A stretch of 64,000 nucleotides of DNA from Cyanobacteria bacterium P01_D01_bin.156 (GCA_039024555.1 JBCCQQ010000035.1:1-64000), one strand, 5' to 3'. Shown: positions 1-9,108, counted from the first letter of the stretch. Numbers and translations: made by a program. The notes: generated from the sequence alone by a model not told the origin.

Positions 1-798
1 GCTAAAGGCCACGGCATAAACCGCGCTGCGATGGCCCTCCAGGGGGTCGCCGATGGGGTTGCCCTCCGGGTCCCATAGCCGCAGGGTGGTGTCAGCGCTG
101 CCGGAGACAATGCAATCTCCCTTGGGGCTAAAGGCCACGGCTCTAACCGAGCTGCGATGGCCCTCCAGGGGGTCGCCGATGGGGTTGCCCTCCAGGTCCC
201 ATAGCCGCAGGGTGGTGTCACGACTGCCGGAGACAATCCGATCCCCCTCGGGGCTAAAGGCCACGGCATCAACCGAGTTGCGATGGCCCTCCAGGGGGTC
301 GCCGATGGGGTTACCCTCCAGGTCCCACAGCCGCAGGGCGGTGTCATGGCTGCCGGAGACAATCCAATCTCCATCGGGGCTAAAGGCCACGGCATTAACC
401 GAGTCGCGATGGCCCTCCAGGGGGTCGTCGATGGGGTTGCCCTCCAGGTCCCACAGCCGCAGGGTGTTGTCAGAGCTGCCGGAGACAATGCGATTTCCAT
501 CGGGGCTAAAGGCCACGGCTCTAACCGAGCTGCGATGGCCCTGGAGGGGGTCGCCGATGGGGTTGCCCTCCAGGTCCCACAGCCGCAGGGTGTTGTCATT
601 GCTGCCGGAGACAATGCGATTTCCCTGAGGGCTAAAGGCCACGGCTCTAACCGAGCTGCGATGGCCCTGGAGGGGGTCGCCGATGGGGTTGCCCTCCAGG
701 TCCCACAGCCGCAGGGTGGAGTCAGAACTGCCGGAGACAATCCGATCCCCATCGGGGCTAAAGGCCACGGCCAAAACCGAGTCGCGATGGCCCTCTAG
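1..798 (-). repeat. Tandem 126-bp (42-aa) WD40-coding repeats, at least 6 full units, continuing beyond the window
   Basis: GCTAAAGGCCACGGC recurs at 1, 127, 253, 379, 505, 631 and 757. Confidence 0.97.
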
Positions 799-3165
799 CT
801 TTAGCCGTTCACAAATTTTCTGCCAGGTTTGGTTCAGGGCATACTGGGCCGAGTGTTTTACCTCATCCTTAAACGCCACCAGGCTATCGTTCACCGTGTC
901 CATGGCTTCCAGGGTGGCTTCTACGGTGTACTGAGGCAAGTTGATTAGCTTGTCACGAATTTTACGAGAGCGGTTCTGAATTTGAGCATCGGCTAAAGCC
1001 TTTTCCAACACTGCTTTTTTTCGCTGCTCTTGATTGTCACTACGGGTAAAAAATGTGCGCAGCCCCGTATCCAAAAGCACATCGTTTCGTGCTGTACCAG
1101 GCAGTTCCCTTAATTCTGCTAATAACCCGCTGGGTATCAGGTACTCTATCTGCCGGTCGTGCTCCATCCACTCCTCATAGGCATCCCGCGTCCGCTGCCC
1201 CAGCCGCTGCAAATCCCGATCCTCCTGACGCCAGTCAGCAAAATGCTGCCACCCATCCATCAGCGCCTCATGGGCAATATCCACATAGCGGTTTTCGTCA
1301 TCACCACCGGTCACCAGCAGCCGTGCCCCCACCAGCCGATCAATCACATAGTCAATCAGCTCTTTTTCGCTATCCGTCTGTCCCATAGCCAAGAGCTTTT
1401 CCCGGGGCTGCCGCTGCCGGGTATCCTTCCCTTCCTTACCAATGCGGATCAAACTTAAACAGATGCGACGGCACCAGCCCTGCTCATTCTTCGCCAACTG
1501 GTCATACACCTTTGTCGCCTGACTGTTTAGCGTCCCCTTCAGCCGGTCCATCGCCGCATAGGCATTCACCGTCAAACAATGGTTCTGCGTATCCCGCTGA
1601 TCCCACAGCGCTTCCAACGCAAATTCCAACAGCGGCAATGCATTACTCGCCACTTTCATATCATCGGCAATCAGCTGCAGCAAACCGTTCTCAATGCGGT
1701 GCCCCTGCACCAGTGCCGGTTTCTCCACTGCATCCAGCAGCGCCTGCCCCTGCAGCCGCCCCAGAAATACCGCATCTGCCTGAATTGCCTCGATCAGCTC
1801 CCCATAGCTCAGCCAGTCTGGCAAAAAGTCCGCCCGCATGGTGGTCACAATCGCCAGCGGCGAGTCTTCAACCCTGGCAATCTTTGTCAAGCAGTCGATA
1901 AACCATTGCTTTTCTAACTCTGACGAGCCTAGGGCAAAAACCTCTTCAAACTGGTCCACCACCAGCAATATTTTTTGGGTGTCGAGACTGTCCGGCAACA
2001 GCGCCACCGCCCCCAGCAAATCTTTCTCACCAATGCACTCCGCTATCCGGTTTATATCCCGACTGTGGCTCACCAACTGACAAAACGCATTTTTCAGCAT
2101 CGCCATAGGCTCTATCCCTGGCTTTATCGGCTCTAGAATCCGCCAATTTCCCATTTGCCGTAAAGCTGGCAGCAGCCCTGCCCGCACCACCGATGATTTA
2201 CCACTGCCCGACACCCCAATCACCGGCACAAAATTCGTTGCATTGAGCTTTGCCAGCAACAGCTCAATCTCTTTTTCGCGACCAAAAAAGAACGCTTTAG
2301 AATTTTCGTCAAATGCCTTTAGACCTTGATAGGGATTCTTTTCACTTATCTGGGCTTTGCGCTGAAGATCTGCCGCAACTGTGCCATGGCGAACAATCTC
2401 AATTGCCCGACCATGGCCCATCTGCAGGGGTTCTTGCTTTTCTGTTCTAAGCTGCCTAGGAACAATCTCAATTGCCCGACCATGGCCCATCTGCAGGGGT
2501 TCTTGCTTTTCTGTTCTAAGCTGCCTAGTAATATAGTCAAACAACCCCGTTGCCGTAATCGCCTCACCTTCCGGCGCATTCTCAGCAGCCAACCCACTCA
2601 GCACCGCTGCCGTAAATACGCTGTGCTCGGCACCACGCTTAGCCCAGGCAGACTCAGAACTGCGCGCAGCAGTCATAAAAAAGTAATCAGTCTTTTGACC
2701 AAAGCTAGTAAAACTCTGCTGAAACAGCCCCCGCTCAATTAGCCCCCCGCTGTGGCACGTATCCAACAGCAGCACTAAATTACTCAGGTCCGCCTTAGCA
2801 ATCAGCTTGTTAAAGTTCACAAACGGAATGCCATGGCGCTGCTCAACAATCGTGTTGTTTTCCCGTCGCACCCGACAGTTCGACGTAGCAATATAGCCCG
2901 TCTGCTCCTCAGTAAAGTCATCCTGCACCAAAAAGCTGTGGCCCGTAATGTAAATCAGCGCCTCATTTTTATGGGCCGTCTGCTGCAAAAAAGTTTTTAG
3001 CTGGGCAACAATTTCGTCGTAGTCTGCTGCTTCTAAAATCGACGTAATGCGATATCCACCAGTTTTTAATACCTGCGCCACTGCCTGGGCATCTGTTGCC
3101 GGTCGGGTCAGCTCATTAAAGTCACTGTAATCAGTCAGACCCATCACCAGGGCGTATTTGGCCAT
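1..3165 (-). CDS. Caspase-like (peptidase C14) + STAND (nSTAND1-type) NTPase + WD40-repeat protein; 3' end runs off the window
   Basis: Translated by hand from ATG at 3165; same frame down to base 1. Starts MAKYALVMGLTDY; His in YITGHS (2938-2940); Cys in LLDTCHSG (2755-2757); NPYQGLKAF..FFGRE; Walker A GVSGSGKSS (~2191-2217); Walker B LLVVDQFEE; LPLLEFAL; DIAHEAL; then GH..SV.AVAFSPDG.RIVSGS.D.TLRLWD repeats. Missing from the ORF track because there is no stop in the window. Confidence 0.92.
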   Translation of the reverse strand, partial: MAKYALVMGLTDYSDFNELTRPATDAQAVAQVLKTGGYRITSILEAADYDEIVAQLKTFLQQTAHKNEALIYITGHSFLVQDDFTEEQTGYIATSNCRVRRENNTIVEQRHGIPFVNFNKLIAKADLSNLVLLLDTCHSGGLIERGLFQQSFTSFGQKTDYFFMTAARSSESAWAKRGAEHSVFTAAVLSGLAAENAPEGEAITATGLFDYITRQLRTEKQEPLQMGHGRAIEIVPRQLRTEKQEPLQMGHGRAIEIVRHGTVAADLQRKAQISEKNPYQGLKAFDENSKAFFFGREKEIELLLAKLNATNFVPVIGVSGSGKSSVVRAGLLPALRQMGNWRILEPIKPGIEPMAMLKNAFCQLVSHSRDINRIAECIGEKDLLGAVALLPDSLDTQKILLVVDQFEEVFALGSSELEKQWFIDCLTKIARVEDSPLAIVTTMRADFLPDWLSYGELIEAIQADAVFLGRLQGQALLDAVEKPALVQGHRIENGLLQLIADDMKVASNALPLLEFALEALWDQRDTQNHCLTVNAYAAMDRLKGTLNSQATKVYDQLAKNEQGWCRRICLSLIRIGKEGKDTRQRQPREKLLAMGQTDSEKELIDYVIDRLVGARLLVTGGDDENRYVDIAHEALMDGWQHFADWRQEDRDLQRLGQRTRDAYEEWMEHDRQIEYLIPSGLLAELRELPGTARNDVLLDTGLRTFFTRSDNQEQRKKAVLEKALADAQIQNRSRKIRDKLINLPQYTVEATLEAMDTVNDSLVAFKDEVKHSAQYALNQTWQKICERLKLEGHRDSVLAVAFSPDGDRIVSGSSDSTLRLWDLEGNPIGDPLQGHRSSVRAVAFSPQGNRIVSGSNDNTLRLWDLEGNPIGDPLQGHRSSVRAVAFSPDGNRIVSGSSDNTLRLWDLEGNPIDDPLEGHRDSVNAVAFSPDGDWIVSGSHDTALRLWDLEGNPIGDPLEGHRNSVDAVAFSPEGDRIVSGSRDTTLRLWDLEGNPIGDPLEGHRSSVRAVAFSPKGDCIVSGSADTTLRLWDPEGNPIGDPLEGHRSAVYAVAFS
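2391..2528. repeat. Exact 69-bp in-frame tandem duplication inside the caspase-STAND gene
   Basis: 2391-2459 equals 2460-2528; RQLRTEKQEPLQMGHGRAIEIV is encoded twice. Confidence 0.95.
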
Positions 3166-3287
3166 AGCAAACAAACAAAGGCTTAAGGATCGACAAATCT
3201 ATCAATTTCTCCAAATACCATAGCGAAGATTCCCGATCCGGTCTGATAACAAATCTGAATTGATTGAACCCAATTCAAAAGCGGCAT

Positions 3288-3362
3288 GTAGGGGCACTCC
3301 CTTGCGAATGCCCCTCAATATCAATTGAAAACCCTGTAGGGGCACTCCCTTGTGGATGCCCC
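3288..3362 (+). repeat. Two GTAG-type REP-like palindromes
   Basis: GTAGGGGCACTCCCTTGCGAATGCCCC at 3288 and GTAGGGGCACTCCCTTGTGGATGCCCC at 3336; GTAG head plus GGGCA...TGCCC stem. Confidence 0.75.
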
Positions 3363-3426
3363 CGATATCAATCGCTATCAGCCAGGATTTTGTAGAACAT
3401 TCAGAAATTTTGTAACTCCTCAACCC

Positions 3427-3825
3427 ATGAGCATCATTCAGCCCTATGTCGTCCAAGACGAAGACACCGGCACAGAATACACCGTCTACATCCAAACCGA
3501 TGATGAAGTAATACCTAAGACACCCGGCAAAGATGCAAAACGTGACGGAGGTCTCTGGGACGAAAACGAATCTTACGGGCCTAACTCAACCCGTTCTACA
3601 GTCTCCAAAGAAACCTTGGTCAAACTACGGGAAGTCAACGGCACCATTCGCACCTATGCCAAATTCGTCATCGACGCCTTCAAAAATATGGGTGGCGCGG
3701 AAGTCGAAGAACTCAACTTCAAATTTGGCCTCAAATTTAGCGGCGGCGCTAACGTCCCCGTTCTGGTTAAAGGCTCCGCCGAAAGCAATTTTGAGGTCGA
3801 AGTGAAATGTAAATTTCCCAAATAA
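3427..3825 (+). CDS. Trypco1 / CU044_2847-like peptidase-co-occurring protein
   Basis: C-terminal VEELNFKFGLKFSGGANVPVLVKGSAESNFEVEVKC matches the family pattern (E.EFG.K..GE.G.P...KG..E.N..V...W/C). ATG at 3427 preferred because the longer start at 3352 lies inside a REP. Confidence 0.75.
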   Translation: MSIIQPYVVQDEDTGTEYTVYIQTDDEVIPKTPGKDAKRDGGLWDENESYGPNSTRSTVSKETLVKLREVNGTIRTYAKFVIDAFKNMGGAEVEELNFKFGLKFSGGANVPVLVKGSAESNFEVEVKCKFPK

Positions 3826-3847
3826 ATCTTTATTATTCCAGCATTTT

Positions 3848-3956
3848 GTAGGGGAACGCCCTTGTGGATGCCCTCGATAACCTGCGCAATCATCCCGTAT
3901 CACCCTCGGCAAATGGCCAAACTATCGATGGGTTGGCACAAGGCACAACCCCTGCA
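3848..3956. repeat. REP-like palindrome (3848-3874) plus a degenerate inverted copy (3931-3956)
   Basis: GTAGGGGAACGCCCTTGTGGATGCCC on +; GCAGGGGTTGTGCCTTGTGCCAACC on -. Confidence 0.6.
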
Positions 3957-3981
3957 GGGTTTTATCAAACCCTATGAACAC

Positions 3982-4011
3982 AAAATTGCCCCAGGTATAC
4001 ACCTGAGGCAA
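3982..4011 (-). terminator. Intrinsic terminator of ftsH
   Basis: TTGCCCCAGGT-ATAC-ACCTGAGGCAA stem followed by a T run on the minus strand. Confidence 0.6.
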
Positions 4012-4048
4012 CCCACACTACTAAAAATGGTTGAAGCGAAGGGTAAAT

Positions 4049-5905
4049 CTAAACCGCCATTGCCTCTAATGACTTAATCTGAGCTAACATCTCCCGCAGC
4101 GTTTCCCCTTCAATCACTTCTTCTTTAAGCAACTGCTGCGAAATTGTCTCTAGCAGGTCTCGATTGCCACGAAGAATGGCCAATGCCCGCTCATGGGCAG
4201 CTTCCACCAAGCCCTTCACTTCGGCATCAATCGCTCGGGCTGTAGTTTCACTCATGTTGCGCCGCGCATTGGGCATACCACTATCCAAAAAGGAATTTTG
4301 CTGCCCCTTGTCATAGGCCAATGGCCCCAACACCTCGCTCATGCCGTAGGTAGTGACCATTTGCTCTGCAACTTCCGTTGCCCGCTGCAGATCGTTGGCA
4401 GCACCGGTAGTAATAGATCCAAATACGACTTCCTCAGCCGAACGACCGCCCAACAGTGTGGCAATCTGACCTTTTAGTTCATCAGCACTCCGCAAGAACC
4501 GATCTTCCGTTGGAAGCTGAAGCGTATACCCCAGGGCGGCCATGCCGCGAGGAACGATGGAGATTTTTTCTACCTGGCCACCGCCCTCCATGAGAGCCCC
4601 CACCATGGCATGCCCCACTTCGTGGTAAGCAACGATTTCCTTCTCTTTCTCGTTCAGGACCCGGCTTTTTTTCTCTAGACCTGCCACTACACGCTCAATG
4701 GCTTCGGCAAAGTCGGCCTGTTCCACAGCCTGACGATTGTTGCGGGCAGCGAGCAGTGCCGCTTCATTCACCAGGTTGGCCAGATCGGCACCAGCAAACC
4801 CCGGTGTGCGGGTAGCAATGACGTTTAGGTCTACGGTATCCCCCAATTTCACTTCCTGGGCGTGAATTTCCAAAATCGCCTGACGCCCTTTCAGGTCAGG
4901 ACGGTCTACCAGCACCTGCCGGTCAAAGCGACCGGGGCGGAGTAGTGCCTGGTCTAAGGTTTCAGGACGGTTTGTAGCGGCTAACACAATAATGGTGTTG
5001 TCCCCAGCACTAAAGCCATCCATTTCGGTAAGGAGCTGATTTAAGGTTTGCTCCCGTTCATCATTACCGCCGTAGAAACCACCAGAAGCTCGTGACTTAC
5101 CAATGGCATCTAGCTCATCGATAAAGATAATGCAGGGGGCCTGCTTTTTGGCTTGCTCGAATAGGTCGCGCACGCGAGAAGAGCCCACCCCCACAAACAT
5201 TTCGATAAATTCTGAACCGGAAATGCTGAAAAATGGGACACCCGCTTCTCCAGCGACAGCTTTGGCCAGTAGAGTTTTACCGGTTCCCGGAGGGCCTACG
5301 AGCAAAACACCTTTGGGAATTTTGGCTCCAATATCAGTAAAGCGCTTAGGAGTTTTGAGGAAATCAACGATTTCTACCAGTTCGGTTTTAGCTTCTTCGA
5401 CACCGGCCACATCCTCAAAGGTGATTTTGGTGTCTTCATCTTCGACATACACCTTGGCTTTGCTTTTACCAATGGACAAGGCACCCTGGGGACCACCCCC
5501 CCGAGCCAAGAAGAACCGCCACACGGCCACAAAGATTAATGGTGGCAATACCCAGCTGAGTAGGCTACCAATCCACTGATTTTGAGAGGGAGGAATGGCA
5601 GCAAACTCGACACCATTTGCTTCTAGTAAATCTGGCAACTTCAGATCAAAAATGGGGGTCGTTGAGTAGATAGCACCGGGTTCACCTAATTCATTTTTAA
5701 CCTGATACCGAATTTCGTTTTGCCCCACTGAAGCGGTCACAACTTCTTGTTCCTGCACCTGATGAATAAACATACTGTAGGGGGTGCGGGGAGTACGCTG
5801 AACGGGCAAAAAGATATTTACCGTCAGTAGGATTGCCCCCAGCAAAAACAGTAAGTTACTGATTTGGCGGGAGCGTGGCGGGCGTGGGTCCTTGTTTACC
5901 GGCAT
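4049..5905 (-). CDS. ftsH: ATP-dependent zinc metalloprotease FtsH (FtsH4 type)
   Basis: Two N-terminal TM segments, [32 protein letters not shown]; the N-terminal [16 protein letters not shown] segment is typical of cyanobacterial FtsH4. Confidence 0.97.
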
Positions 5906-6038
5906 AGCCTGAAGCTCCTTACAGATGTGTCCTCAGCCTATCAATGGGGCTGACGAAAAAGTAAATTGAAAACCGTACCCGATCGGTTGGGTTTCCAACG
6001 CTTTAAAGCACAAATTCCCTCGCTAAGTGTGGAACTTT

Positions 6039-7613
6039 CTATAGCTGCGCACCGATGTGGATTGCTAGGGCTTGATAGGGTTGCACTGTGATTTGGGCAT
6101 TCCCCAAACTGTCCACTTCAATAATTTCAGTGTCACAGCCTGGGGAAAGACTATTGGGTTCCATGGTGACTTCTGAGTCAACCATGTCAAGCATAGGCTC
6201 CGCCAAGATGTTGCAATATACCCCTGCTGACAGACCGGTCATCAAAGTCGCTTCTAATACGGTGTCTTCATTATTGATAGCGACAAACCCGCGCTGTCCT
6301 CGGGCAAAGGCTATTTGGTTATTACCGTTGTCCCACCAATGCTCGACTGTGGATGCTCCTTGGGTCACATTGCGGAACTCAACCATGTTGGCAATCTGGG
6401 GCCAACGATGTTCACACACCCAGCCATCACCACAGCTTACAGGTAAAGTATTTCCTTGGTCATCGGCTGGGGGACCAGCTGCAGTGCCCACTTCTCGGGT
6501 CCAGTCGTAGCTAGACATGACACGGGGCGTACCGTAGGGCCAGGCCAACATAAAAATATTGGCTAATCGATAGCGGGCACCGTTATCCGGTGGCGCAAAG
6601 AAAGTAACAATGTTGCGATCGCGGCTCCGCTGGGTGACGTGATTATCCGTAAACACCACCGCCTTATGGCTCGGCATTAATCCCCACGCTTCTCCAAACA
6701 GCACTAAATTTTTAAGCTGTCCGTAACGTACCTGCTCACCCAAATGACGGCCATAGCCAAACTCTGTTACTGCACCATGGGTAAAATAAGCGCTCGACTG
6801 AATAGGCTCAGCCCCCTTACGAGCAACTTCTTGGTAGATAAATGGACGGGCACCATGCCCATGAAACTTAGGGTTCAGGGGCTTTAATTGCCGCAAAATC
6901 TTTGCTAAGTGGTCCGGCGAAATCTGCTCAGCAGCATTAATGTGGAAACCGGCCACACCTATTGCCAGCAGCTCATTCATAGCAGCTGCGATCTCAGTCT
7001 GCACCTTTTCACTGTCCGTTTCTAAATCCTGCTTATTCAGCAATTGACAGGACGGCTCCTCCCTATCATCAGACAACTCAATCGTACAGGTCCCGTTAAA
7101 ATCGCCTGGGTCATAGGGCACAGCACTAGATTGAGAGGTATCAAATTTACTTCCCTCACTGCCCTGGTAGGCACCGGCACTTGCTATGTGATTAATTACC
7201 ACATCGGCGTAGACCTTAACCCCGGCACGATGGCAGCGGTTCACCATATTGGCTAACTCAGAGCGATCACCACTGCGGCTCGATAATTTATAACTCACAC
7301 GCTCATATCGCTGATACCAGGGAAATGCGTTAGGCCCCTCGTCAATCACACGATGCTCATGGGGAGGCGAAATTTGTACAGCACCATAACCAAGGGGACC
7401 TAGCCACGCCTCACACTCTTGGGCAATGTCAGCCCAGCGCCACTCAAATAGCTGTACCATCACTGACCGCGAACTAGTAGGAAACGATCGACCACCGGTC
7501 GCTGGAGGCAACTGAGCCGCGACCTGACATCCCCCCAATCCCAGGGCAAATGCTATGGCGGCATATCGTCTGACAAGTTGAGCCAGACCCCCTGAAACTA
7601 CCCCAGGGTGCAC
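6039..7613 (-). CDS. GH13 alpha-amylase-like protein (animal/actinobacterial type), probable lipoprotein, predicted catalytically inactive
   Basis: VQLFEWRW, QISPP, DVVINH, YQEV, WPYG.PRVMSSY, WVCEHRW, WWDNGNNQIAFARG; lipobox-like LGGC; region II reads GFHINAAEQ and region IV reads FTDNHV. Confidence 0.88.
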   Translation of the reverse strand: MHPGVVSGGLAQLVRRYAAIAFALGLGGCQVAAQLPPATGGRSFPTSSRSVMVQLFEWRWADIAQECEAWLGPLGYGAVQISPPHEHRVIDEGPNAFPWYQRYERVSYKLSSRSGDRSELANMVNRCHRAGVKVYADVVINHIASAGAYQGSEGSKFDTSQSSAVPYDPGDFNGTCTIELSDDREEPSCQLLNKQDLETDSEKVQTEIAAAMNELLAIGVAGFHINAAEQISPDHLAKILRQLKPLNPKFHGHGARPFIYQEVARKGAEPIQSSAYFTHGAVTEFGYGRHLGEQVRYGQLKNLVLFGEAWGLMPSHKAVVFTDNHVTQRSRDRNIVTFFAPPDNGARYRLANIFMLAWPYGTPRVMSSYDWTREVGTAAGPPADDQGNTLPVSCGDGWVCEHRWPQIANMVEFRNVTQGASTVEHWWDNGNNQIAFARGQRGFVAINNEDTVLEATLMTGLSAGVYCNILAEPMLDMVDSEVTMEPNSLSPGCDTEIIEVDSLGNAQITVQPYQALAIHIGAQL

Positions 7614-7830
7614 CGAGTGCTACTATCTGCGATCGCAGATAAACTAATCACGTTGTCAAACACCATACGTATTACATAGCCCCAAAGTAAGGTTTGCAGT
7701 GACCCTTAAGCCAGTATTTATCGGGATGACCGATCAGCTTAGCAAGTAATATTTTTTACATAGATTACGATACCCGAGTTGGACTTCTTGAGATCTTTTT
7801 AGACTTTCGAACTCTACATTACCCAATACA

Positions 7831-7872
7831 AAAACCTGCTCCTAGGGGGGGAACACCCCTAAAAACAGGTTT
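7831..7872 (-). terminator. Probable petJ terminator hairpin
   Basis: AAACCTG..TAGGGG/CCCCTA..CAGGTTT with a T run on the minus strand. Confidence 0.5.
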
Positions 7873-7947
7873 GAGAGTCAAATATTTAACGTTTTACTTA
7901 AGTAAAAACCGTAGCCTCACAATAGGCAGACGATTCAAGCAACTTAG

Positions 7948-8277
7948 TTACCAACCCTTGTCAGCCTGAGAAAGCACGTACGCGGCTACATTTTCAATCT
8001 GCTCAGGCGTTAAACGACCACCAAACGGCGGCATGCCGCCATTGCCATTGGTAACCTGGGTAATAATGGCTTCGGGAGTGTCCTTACCGTACTGCACTAG
8101 GTCATCCTTCTTTAGGGTTTTAGCAGGATTAACCGCGTTACCGCCACCAATATGGCAAGCGGCACAGTTAGCGGAAAATACCTGAGCACCTGCGGCTGCA
8201 TCAGCGGCCATAGCAGGGGATGCGAAGAAAATAGCACTGGCCACAAACGCTACAAACGCAGTCAAAATAGATTTCAT
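7948..8277 (-). CDS. petJ: Cytochrome c6
   Basis: Signal peptide, FSANCAACH heme motif, QVTNG.G.MPPFGGRL, terminal KGW. Confidence 0.95.
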   Translation of the reverse strand: MKSILTAFVAFVASAIFFASPAMAADAAAGAQVFSANCAACHIGGGNAVNPAKTLKKDDLVQYGKDTPEAIITQVTNGNGGMPPFGGRLTPEQIENVAAYVLSQADKGW

Positions 8278-8378
8278 CGGGTCCTCCTCTCAAAACAAGG
8301 TTTAAGAGCAAACACTCAACAAGCAAGAATTTGTTTACTCAAAAAGCATCATCAGCAGTTTGCCTGACCCAAATCCAA

Positions 8379-8391
8379 TGACAATCAGTCA
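8379..8391. promoter_or_regulatory. Palindrome TGAC-N5-GTCA, candidate copper-switch (PetR) operator
   Basis: TGACAATCAGTCA in the petJ/petE divergent intergenic region; assignment to PetR is inference. Confidence 0.4.
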
Positions 8392-8703
8392 AAGATAAAC
8401 AAATGTAACTTTATAAAGACTTAGGCTTTGAAAGGTTTGCCATAACAGCACGGCAACTGTACTGACATCTAAAGAACGCCTAAAGCCTTCTATTACGAGG
8501 CGTTGATTACAAAATACATTTCCTGCTAAACAGGTCTGCTTTCTCTAAACGCACTCATAAAGCCGACGCTAGCAGACAAAACCCCGGTAAAAACACTTTA
8601 TTTTTAGTTTCTTTGCCTACGGAGACAGCAGGCATTCTAAAATAACGAAGCATACGTAGTTAAGCTTTTTAACTACACCTAAACTCAACCTTGAGAAATT
8701 ACC

Positions 8704-9108
8704 ATGACCTTTATCAACCGAGCTTTGCGAGCTATGGGTGCATTGCTGGTAACAGCTGCCCTAGTTTTTGCTAGCACTGTTTTTAACGCAGCTCCTGCTT
8801 ACGCAACTGATCACACAGTTAAGATGGGCTCCGATGCAGGTCTGCTTCAGTTTGAACCTGCCACTATCACCATCAAGGCTGGCGACACCGTCACTTGGGT
8901 CAACAATAAGATGGCCCCCCATAACGTTATTTTCGACGCCGCTGCAGTACCCGGTGGCAAGTCTGTCGCTGATAGCCTCTCCCAAGAGCAGCTAACTTTT
9001 GCGCCTGGTGAGTCCTATTCCTCCACATTCAGTGATGCTGGTGAGTATAGCTACTTCTGTGCCCCTCACCGTGGCGCTGGCATGGTAGGCAAGATTATTG
9101 TTGAATAA
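8704..9108 (+). CDS. petE: Plastocyanin
   Basis: Signal peptide, PHNVIFD, Cu ligands in [13 protein letters not shown]. Confidence 0.97.

Follow-up and report, generated by a model that had tools for sequence, protein, structure and literature searches.

A divergent Pepco and caspase-STAND-WD40 gene pair as a candidate cell-death module in cyanobacteria

Contig C35 of Cyanobacteria bacterium P01_D01_bin.156 (an assembly of 6.6 Mb in 149 contigs), whose first 64,000 bases are here called the window, opens with a pair of divergent genes: a large minus-strand gene encoding a caspase-nSTAND1-WD40 protein and a small plus-strand gene encoding a member of the Pepco family, also known as Trypco1 or CU044_2847. 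We consider it likely, with a probability of roughly 65% and by analogy with characterised relatives, that the pair is a two-gene Pepco-protease cell-death module of the abortive-infection type, belonging to the caspase-linked branch of the family. The gene pair is conserved as a unit across cyanobacteria. In the proposed mechanism, the WD40 propellers would bind a trigger, most likely a phage protein, and the STAND module would oligomerise with NTP; oligomerisation would gather the caspase domains and activate them by proximity, and the activated caspase would cleave Pepco. By analogy with a trypsin-linked homologue, Pepco would be a latent beta-barrel pore, which cleavage would allow to permeabilise the membrane and kill the infected cell.

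Results

Domain composition of the gene pair

The large gene lies in an open reading frame (1..3174 on the minus strand, 1058 aa from a TTG) that continues without a stop codon to the first base of the window. A sequence-only reading of the window, made before any database search, had described a minus-strand frame of more than 1055 aa missing from its track of open reading frames; we recovered this frame in a listing that allows open ends, which explains why the earlier track lacked it. Because the window starts where the contig starts, it is the contig end, not a mutation, that truncates the frame. The ATG at 3165 was supported by a nearly invariant M1 in an alignment of 38 partner caspase domains, and since homologues start at this ATG, we read the available product as 1055 aa.

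Profile searches with Peptidase_C14, nSTAND1 and Trypco1, which the sequence-only reading had proposed, placed all three identities above curated cut-offs. Peptidase_C14 matched the N-terminal part of the large protein at E 2.8e-15 (57.1 bits against a cut-off of 21.4), and the His/Cys dyad that had been read by eye (YITGHS, DTCHSG) is intact, with His76 in ITGHS and Cys137 in DTCHSG. Residues G75, H76, D135 and C137 do not vary among the aligned partner caspase domains (38 of 38), and a PDB sequence search returned metacaspases and the MALT1 paracaspase as the closest solved relatives of the caspase domain. The STAND NTPase and WD40 sensor assigned earlier were likewise recovered: nSTAND1 (PF20703) spans residues 281-675 at E 2.6e-104 (350.3 bits, profile positions 1-377 of 379), with a Walker A motif GVSGSGKS at residues 317-324 and a Walker-B-like LLVVDQ at residue 400, and six WD40 stretches were found by Pfam at E 1.8e-75. 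The PDB sequence search gave no match for the STAND region. Among PADLOC 2.0 models, the large protein matched only HEAT-ARM_XIII (via WD40), 'caspase' PDLC02987 (E 6.2e-9) and, weakly, mad3, while no model of the Avs families matched. A perfect tandem duplication of 69 bp doubles a 23-aa stretch in the last part of the caspase domain and the linker. The nSTAND1 domain starts at residue 278 from the ATG in the window protein compared to residues 254-267 in the nearest orthologues, which suggests that the duplication is absent from them; the event must be very recent, unless it is an artefact of assembly.

The 3' end that the large gene lacks is probably on contig C88 of the same assembly. This contig opens in the middle of a WD40 array, in coding sense and with 90.7% nucleotide identity to the window repeats (C88:1-1241, L121), and its 412-aa frame consists of seven WD40 stretches of the window repeat type, a 95-aa tail and a stop codon. 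The WD40 repeats of a paralogue on contig C7 are visibly of a different type, so C88 is the likely continuation of the window gene, although the join itself is inferred. The full-length protein would be about 1450 aa or more, comparable to the complete orthologue at L017 (1410 aa, 14 WD40 stretches).

The small gene, described by the sequence-only reading as a Trypco1/CU044_2847-like gene 261 bp away on the opposite strand, was confirmed as such by both family models, Trypco1 PF19493 (E 9.7e-17, 61.8 bits, cut-off 24.6) and NF041216 CU044_2847_fam (E 3.2e-17, 63 bits, cut-off 23), and the distance from ATG 3165 to ATG 3427 is indeed 261 bp. The pair itself falls within the extent of 1..3956 given earlier; the outer end of that extent does not hold, since 3956 lies beyond the Pepco stop codon at 3825. 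The window Pepco gene is 83-88% identical to its three nearest relatives. A PDB sequence search with its protein produced a single row, a designed scaffold at E 0.83, and nothing real. The monomer model (mean predicted local distance difference test, pLDDT, 52.4) contains strands at residues 3-10, 17-24, 92-109 and 113-129, a helix at 61-86 and a disordered segment at 26-60. Pepco proteins are characterised as small, non-enzymatic and beta-rich, with an amphipathic helix. This order of two short strands, loop, long helix and long beta-hairpin in the model would suit a small barrel-forming subunit, with low confidence.

Linkage of Pepco genes to caspases and trypsins

Both the family match for 3427-3825 and the recurrence of the gene linkage in other genomes, on which the sequence-only reading had made itself depend, were found. 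Within the source genome, a profile search of the contigs placed Trypco1 at five sites. One of them repeats the window arrangement: on C7 a 176-aa Trypco1 gene is divergent from a second caspase-nSTAND1-WD40 gene with a gap of 128 bp (C7:144688-148490, L008). At another, on C40, the Trypco1 gene immediately precedes a gene for a trypsin-NB-ARC-TPR protein in the same orientation (C40:1-2830, L007), and C68 holds a Trypco1 fragment with a stop codon. The large genes on C7 and C40 both run off their contigs. Among 10 public loci encoding close Pepco relatives, an intact caspase-nSTAND1(-WD40) gene is upstream and divergent at 7; of the others, L018 has a caspase remnant in the matching position, L019 has a caspase N-terminus at the contig edge, and the match at L013 is 93 bases from the contig edge, which puts its upstream side out of view.

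Of 301 cyanobacterial genomes, 58 contained Trypco1, at 120 places in all. We surveyed 101 of the 115 places outside the source genome, the excluded ones being five that contain internal stops and nine whose matches were the weakest; flanking sequence of 6 kb was taken on either side, and the first 420 aa of the nearest gene per side were compared with Pfam. The surveyed genomes are kin, and the counts are therefore not counts of independent events. An intact protease neighbour was found at 72 of the 101 places, and its type predicted its position: a Trypsin_2 partner, at 43 places, was in all 43 downstream on the same strand (gap -40 to 305 bp, median 9), whereas a Peptidase_C14 partner, at 29 places, was in all 29 upstream and divergent (gap 12 to 424 bp). 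The 29 caspase-linked pairs come from 24 genomes with 9 family codes. Their caspase domains continue into nSTAND1 in 24 proteins and into iSTAND in 3, and the remaining 2 consist of the caspase domain alone. Neither protease nor the third type of neighbour described below was present at 21 places, 4 of which retain a protease remnant in the expected position (trypsin at L021 and L028, caspase at L053 and L116).

A third partner class was also observed. At 8 places (L071, L080, L087, L098, L099, L105, L108, L113) the Pepco gene has no protease within 6 kb and is preceded on the same strand, at a gap of 66 to 522 bp, by a gene for a protein of ~280 aa, 7 of these proteins having a SWIM zinc-finger match. 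The Pepco proteins of this class form their own sub-branch within a trypsin-linked clade.

A caspase-linked branch of the family

The linkage classes were supported by the Pepco family tree, which was built from 108 rows after four truncated rows (L028, L116, L117, L118) had been left out. All 38 caspase-linked rows fall on one branch with a Shimodaira-Hasegawa-like approximate likelihood ratio test (SH-aLRT) support of 97; 12 rows that show no protease also belong to it, and no trypsin-linked row falls inside it. The window Pepco sits within this branch in an all-caspase branch of 30 rows (SH-aLRT 98). A single change of partner type explains the labels on the tree. Because the caspase-linked rows share one branch, the divergent caspase-Pepco unit seems to be a single ancient arrangement that was retained, not one that was invented repeatedly.

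Sequence features separate the two groups as well. Proteins of the caspase-linked clade end in the motif G[ST]AESN[FL]E[IV]EVKCKFP followed by a short tail, which in the window protein is a single K after FP, and trypsin-linked cyanobacterial members end in E[IV]TL[KE]W and a short tail. The loop that joins the second strand to the helix has a median length of 28 residues in the caspase clade compared to 23.5 in trypsin-linked members, reaching 41 in the window protein, and is more acidic in the caspase clade. A nearly invariant glycine in this loop (G51) is preceded by K or R in 26 of 50 Pepco rows; the window protein has Tyr at that position.

On the side of the large gene, the C-terminal sensors are interchangeable. 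Caspase-nSTAND1 partners end in WD40 repeats (12 proteins, 11 by a local repeat model and 1 by Pfam), pentapeptide repeats (3), an FGE-sulfatase domain (3) or HisKA plus HATPase_c (2); of nine partners outside these classes, eight were short or near-duplicate and unscanned, and one (L085) was without a match in its last 65 residues. Swapped sensors on a constant Pepco-caspase-STAND core are what conflict systems show. The two proteins with HisKA and HATPase_c ends (L096:3097-5886 on the minus strand, L102:6328-9201 on the plus strand) are an unusual fusion of a death protease with two-component modules.

The intergenic spacer

The spacer between the two start codons holds a 54-nt block beside the caspase start that hardly varies among four genomes, at a protein identity of only 75-88%. 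The block is followed by an insertion of ~155 bp carrying two copies of a 27-nt repeat (3288-3314 and 3336-3362). Orthologous loci L010-L012 are without the insertion, and the divergent gap is 57-99 bp at the three nearest orthologous loci; the window spacer reaches 261 bp because of this insertion. The repeat contains an inverted pair, GGGGCA...TGCCCC, and is present in three copies around the Pepco gene compared to 0 expected by chance, the third copy being a diverged one past the Pepco stop codon. Genome-wide, 17 copies with up to 4 mismatches were found on 12 contigs.

Many caspase-Pepco pairs have a gap of only 57-69 bp, so that their two promoters must share or abut one region. A consensus scan of 3000-4100 found 0 sigma-70-like promoters and 0 terminators (shuffles expect 1.4 and 1.4), and Rfam gave 0 matches in 3100-3950 at E up to 1. 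The sequence-only reading had deduced a shared bidirectional promoter from the divergent layout: the layout was confirmed and the conserved block fits the idea, but as no consensus promoter was found, the promoter stays a reasonable guess. The 54-nt block is a candidate shared control element, which fits a shared control region and is no proof of one. Strict divergence (29 of 29, compared to 43 of 43 in tandem for trypsin) and the block together might reflect separately regulated expression of toxin and sensor.

Feature coordinates and neighbouring genes

Positions of the features discussed above and of the genes that follow the pair are collected in Table 1. Two known kinds of system were tried at the locus and rejected. 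A VMAP ternary system was set aside because the interval from the pair to the FtsH-like gene contains no further long frame, hence no adjacent vWA or MoxR gene. An EACC1-caspase system was set aside because the NF047832 caspase_w_EACC1 model scored 79.7 bits, below its 140-bit cut-off, and the neighbour is Trypco1, not EACC1. Elsewhere, two distant relatives have a GH116 beta-glucosidase gene after the Pepco gene (L017:7533-10112, L019:1213-3690), and alpha-amylase genes lie near Pepco in L045, L103 and on contig C10 of the source genome; this proximity is probably plain synteny.

Table 1. Features of the window around the Pepco-caspase pair, in window positions.
Feature	Position	Strand	Basis
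Caspase-nSTAND1-WD40 gene, 1055 aa from ATG 3165, 3' end missing at contig end	1..3165	-	open frame, domains, homologue-supported start
WD40 array, 42-aa units, 126-bp period, 6.3 copies, 89% nt identity, runs off contig	1..816	-	profile match; tandem repeat 1-795
nSTAND1 NTPase domain; Walker A GVSGSGKS 2194-2217, Walker-B-like LLVVDQ 1951-1968	1150..2334	-	profile match
Perfect 69-bp tandem duplication, 2.0 copies, 100% identical, in frame	2391..2528	-	tandem-repeat search, translation
Peptidase_C14 (orthocaspase-type) domain; His76 codon 2938-2940, Cys137 codon 2755-2757	2497..3159	-	profile match, alignment
Divergent intergenic spacer, 261 bp; 54-nt block 3190-3243, then ~155-bp insertion	3166..3426		repeat search, locus alignment
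Pepco / Trypco1 / CU044_2847-family gene, 132 aa	3427..3825	+	two family models above cut-off; start supported by relatives
Third, diverged 27-nt repeat copy (3 mismatches), 23 bp past Pepco stop codon	3848..3874	+	repeat search
FtsH-like AAA protease	4049-5905	-	translation read by eye
Alpha-amylase-like protein	6039-7613	-	translation read by eye
Cytochrome c-like protein with CAACH	7948-8277	-	translation read by eye
Plastocyanin-like protein	8704-9108	+	translation read by eye

Discussion

Since the small partner has a characterised homologue, the proposed function can be compared with experiment in that relative. Evans et al. (2025, bioRxiv 10.1101/2025.11.14.688446), who called the family Pepco, describe SsPepco as a pre-assembled, denaturation-resistant beta-barrel of 9-10 subunits. 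By their account, the trypsin domain of SsAvs4 cuts SsPepco after Ile97 and removes a 2-kDa C-terminal tail, toxicity requires both Pepco and the catalytic serine, and a truncation ending exactly at Ile97 kills E. coli. The same preprint reports that tested relatives respond to phage portal or tail proteins. Of the roles of substrate, adaptor or executor that the sequence-only reading had left open for the small protein, substrate and executor would fit these SsPepco results as reported. The anti-phage role of the window pair is inferred from such relatives.

How a caspase-linked Pepco would be licensed is less easily transferred. The tail-after-Ile licensing rule of SsPepco probably does not apply to the clade of the window protein, to judge by its C-terminal sequences. 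We tentatively suggest, while regarding it as somewhat doubtful, that this clade may be licensed unlike trypsin-linked SsPepco, in proteins that are without the long tail and conserved Ile and have instead a long acidic disordered loop (~26-60) with one nearly invariant Gly. A basic P1 residue (Arg/Lys) is preferred by MaOC1, metacaspases and the characterised non-animal caspase homologues discussed by Bhattacharjee et al. (2021, PMC8283722), and an orthocaspase of this Arg/Lys specificity might cut in the loop or in the last strand, opening or remodelling the barrel.

Several observations weigh against a Pepco-caspase death module, or at least against its simplest form. The licensing feature of SsPepco does not appear to carry over to the window protein, in which 1-3 residues follow the last predicted strand compared to the 20-residue tail of SsPepco, and no acidic or basic P1 candidate is conserved across the caspase-linked clade in either the C-terminal strand or the loop. 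The Pepco model is of poor quality, no PADLOC 2.0 model matches the small protein, and the large gene is incomplete in the present assembly. Linkage of caspase and Pepco is not obligatory: in the source genome a lone Trypco1 gene on C10 overlaps a helix-turn-helix gene with no protease nearby (C10:60586-60936, L006), a third caspase-nSTAND1 paralogue of 864 aa on C36 has neither WD40 repeats nor a Pepco gene (C36:58655-61249, L120), and 17 of the 101 surveyed places have neither a SWIM neighbour nor, within 6 kb, a protease or the remnant of one. The genes in 4049-9108 resemble housekeeping genes when their translations are read by eye, which places the module outside any obvious defence island. 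Finally, no experimental work on a caspase-linked Pepco was found in the literature searched, though Nicastro et al. 2023 or the figures and supplements of Evans et al. may show such divergent pairs.

A rival reading gives a different use to the same chain of sensor, caspase and Pepco pore, namely in stress-induced or developmental programmed cell death, or in kin or self-recognition, in a filamentous cyanobacterium. It is in keeping with such a use that the neighbours of the locus are apparent housekeeping genes, that cyanobacterial orthocaspases are discussed mainly under programmed cell death, with WD40 as their commonest accessory domain (83 of 473 proteins; PMC8283722), that two partners bear histidine-kinase modules instead of repeats, and that Evans et al. 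raise stress-response roles for related modules. We nevertheless judge a non-antiviral role unlikely. The responses of tested relatives to phage proteins point the other way, Trypco domains have been placed in predicted conflict systems (PMC7159879), and sensor swapping on a constant core, with several diverged copies per genome, is typical of conflict systems.

Slightly less probable again is a reading in which Pepco is not the executioner but a caspase regulator, adaptor or decoy, such as a pseudosubstrate that keeps the protease inactive, with the lethal substrates elsewhere in the proteome. The C-terminal tail and conserved Ile of SsPepco are not seen in the caspase-linked clade, the C36 paralogue exists without Pepco, and the divergent, non-operonic order in 29 of 29 pairs would allow the separate dosage control that suits an inhibitor. 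Against this, caspase-linked and trypsin-linked proteins are one family, with the same Pfam model and the same order of secondary structure, and in the one tested member deletion of Pepco abolished toxicity and did not raise it (bioRxiv 10.1101/2025.11.14.688446). The persistence of twelve caspase-clade Pepco genes without a visible protease would also be odd for a dedicated inhibitor.

That the locus is decaying or inactive, as its truncated large gene, fresh internal duplication, repeat insertion splitting the control region and the degraded pairs elsewhere (L018, L053, L116) might suggest, is highly improbable, given that the truncation is a contig end for which C88 probably supplies seven more WD40 repeats, the tail and a stop, that all 3165 nt are open with the duplication in frame, that catalytic and Walker residues are intact, and that the Pepco gene is well conserved among its nearest relatives.

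The cell-death module thus remains the reading that we favour, and whatever its trigger, the window locus can be annotated confidently as a Pepco-caspase-STAND module. The kind of module is already known; our analysis adds the split of the family by partner protease and gene order, a C-terminal motif for the clade, the swapping of sensors and a doubt about the licensing rule. The caspase-linked branch is coherent, with its own clade, its own C-terminal motif, a fixed divergent order and interchangeable sensors. As the Pepco proteins tested so far are trypsin-linked only, this branch provides a candidate set for the activation of a bacterial pore executioner by a true caspase homologue.

Comparison with known systems

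The module resembles SsPepco-SsAvs4 of Streptomyces subrutilus, as described in the preprint, in having a small Pepco gene beside a STAND NTPase with an N-terminal protease and a C-terminal sensor, and the same logic has been proposed for both, from sensing through oligomerisation, cleavage and pore formation to death. It differs in that the SsAvs4 protease is trypsin-like and its Pepco gene is upstream on the same strand, whereas the window pair is divergent and carries a C14 caspase homologue, a STAND domain of the nSTAND1 clade and a WD40 sensor. Neither the C-terminal tail of 20 residues nor the conserved Ile that precedes the cut in SsPepco was seen in the window protein, and the trypsin-linked and caspase-linked Pepco groups are separate branches of the family tree.

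The names Trypco1 and Trypco2 were given by Kaur et al. (2020, eLife, PMC7159879) to domains that co-occur with trypsin in conflict systems predicted for multicellular bacteria. The Trypco-trypsin combinations of the VMAP (vWA-MoxR) systems presented there share with the window pair the PF19493 domain, a predicted conflict role and an enrichment in multicellular bacteria. In that description, however, Trypco is tied to trypsin-like peptidases and caspases to an alpha/beta-hydrolase neighbour, while the partner in the window is a caspase and no vWA, MoxR or hydrolase gene is beside the pair. VMAP-M1 was present on many trypsin partners in our survey compared to 0 of 29 caspase partners within the first 420 residues.

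Systems of EACC1 and a caspase, including KrAvs12, likewise combine a caspase-superfamily protease fused to STAND with a small non-enzymatic partner that, as reported, becomes a pore after cleavage (PMC7159879; bioRxiv 10.1101/2025.11.14.688446), and the nSTAND1 domain, named by Kaur et al. 2021, is reported to occur in EACC1 systems (PMC8195603). EACC1 is a protein with a single transmembrane helix, whereas the partner in the window is a Pepco. The large protein alone matches a familiar type: fusions with WD40 and an AAA-type NTPase are the commonest multidomain orthocaspases in cyanobacteria according to Bhattacharjee et al. (PMC8283722), and those with WD40 and AAA_16 have the same order of an N-terminal C14 domain with its HC dyad, an NTPase and WD40 repeats. 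That survey, as far as its account extends, describes the proteins singly and names no small partner gene.

More broadly, protease-licensed pore toxins controlled by NLR-like sensors are a bacterial counterpart of the inflammasome-caspase-gasdermin logic. In animals, the Apaf-1 apoptosome and the NLR inflammasomes with gasdermin combine a WD40 or other repeat sensor, a STAND NTPase, caspase activation by induced proximity and an executioner pore released by cleavage. In the window protein the protease is fused to the sensor, unlike the animal caspases, which are recruited via CARD or death domains. Pepco is unrelated to gasdermin, and the likeness does not imply common descent of the whole pathway.

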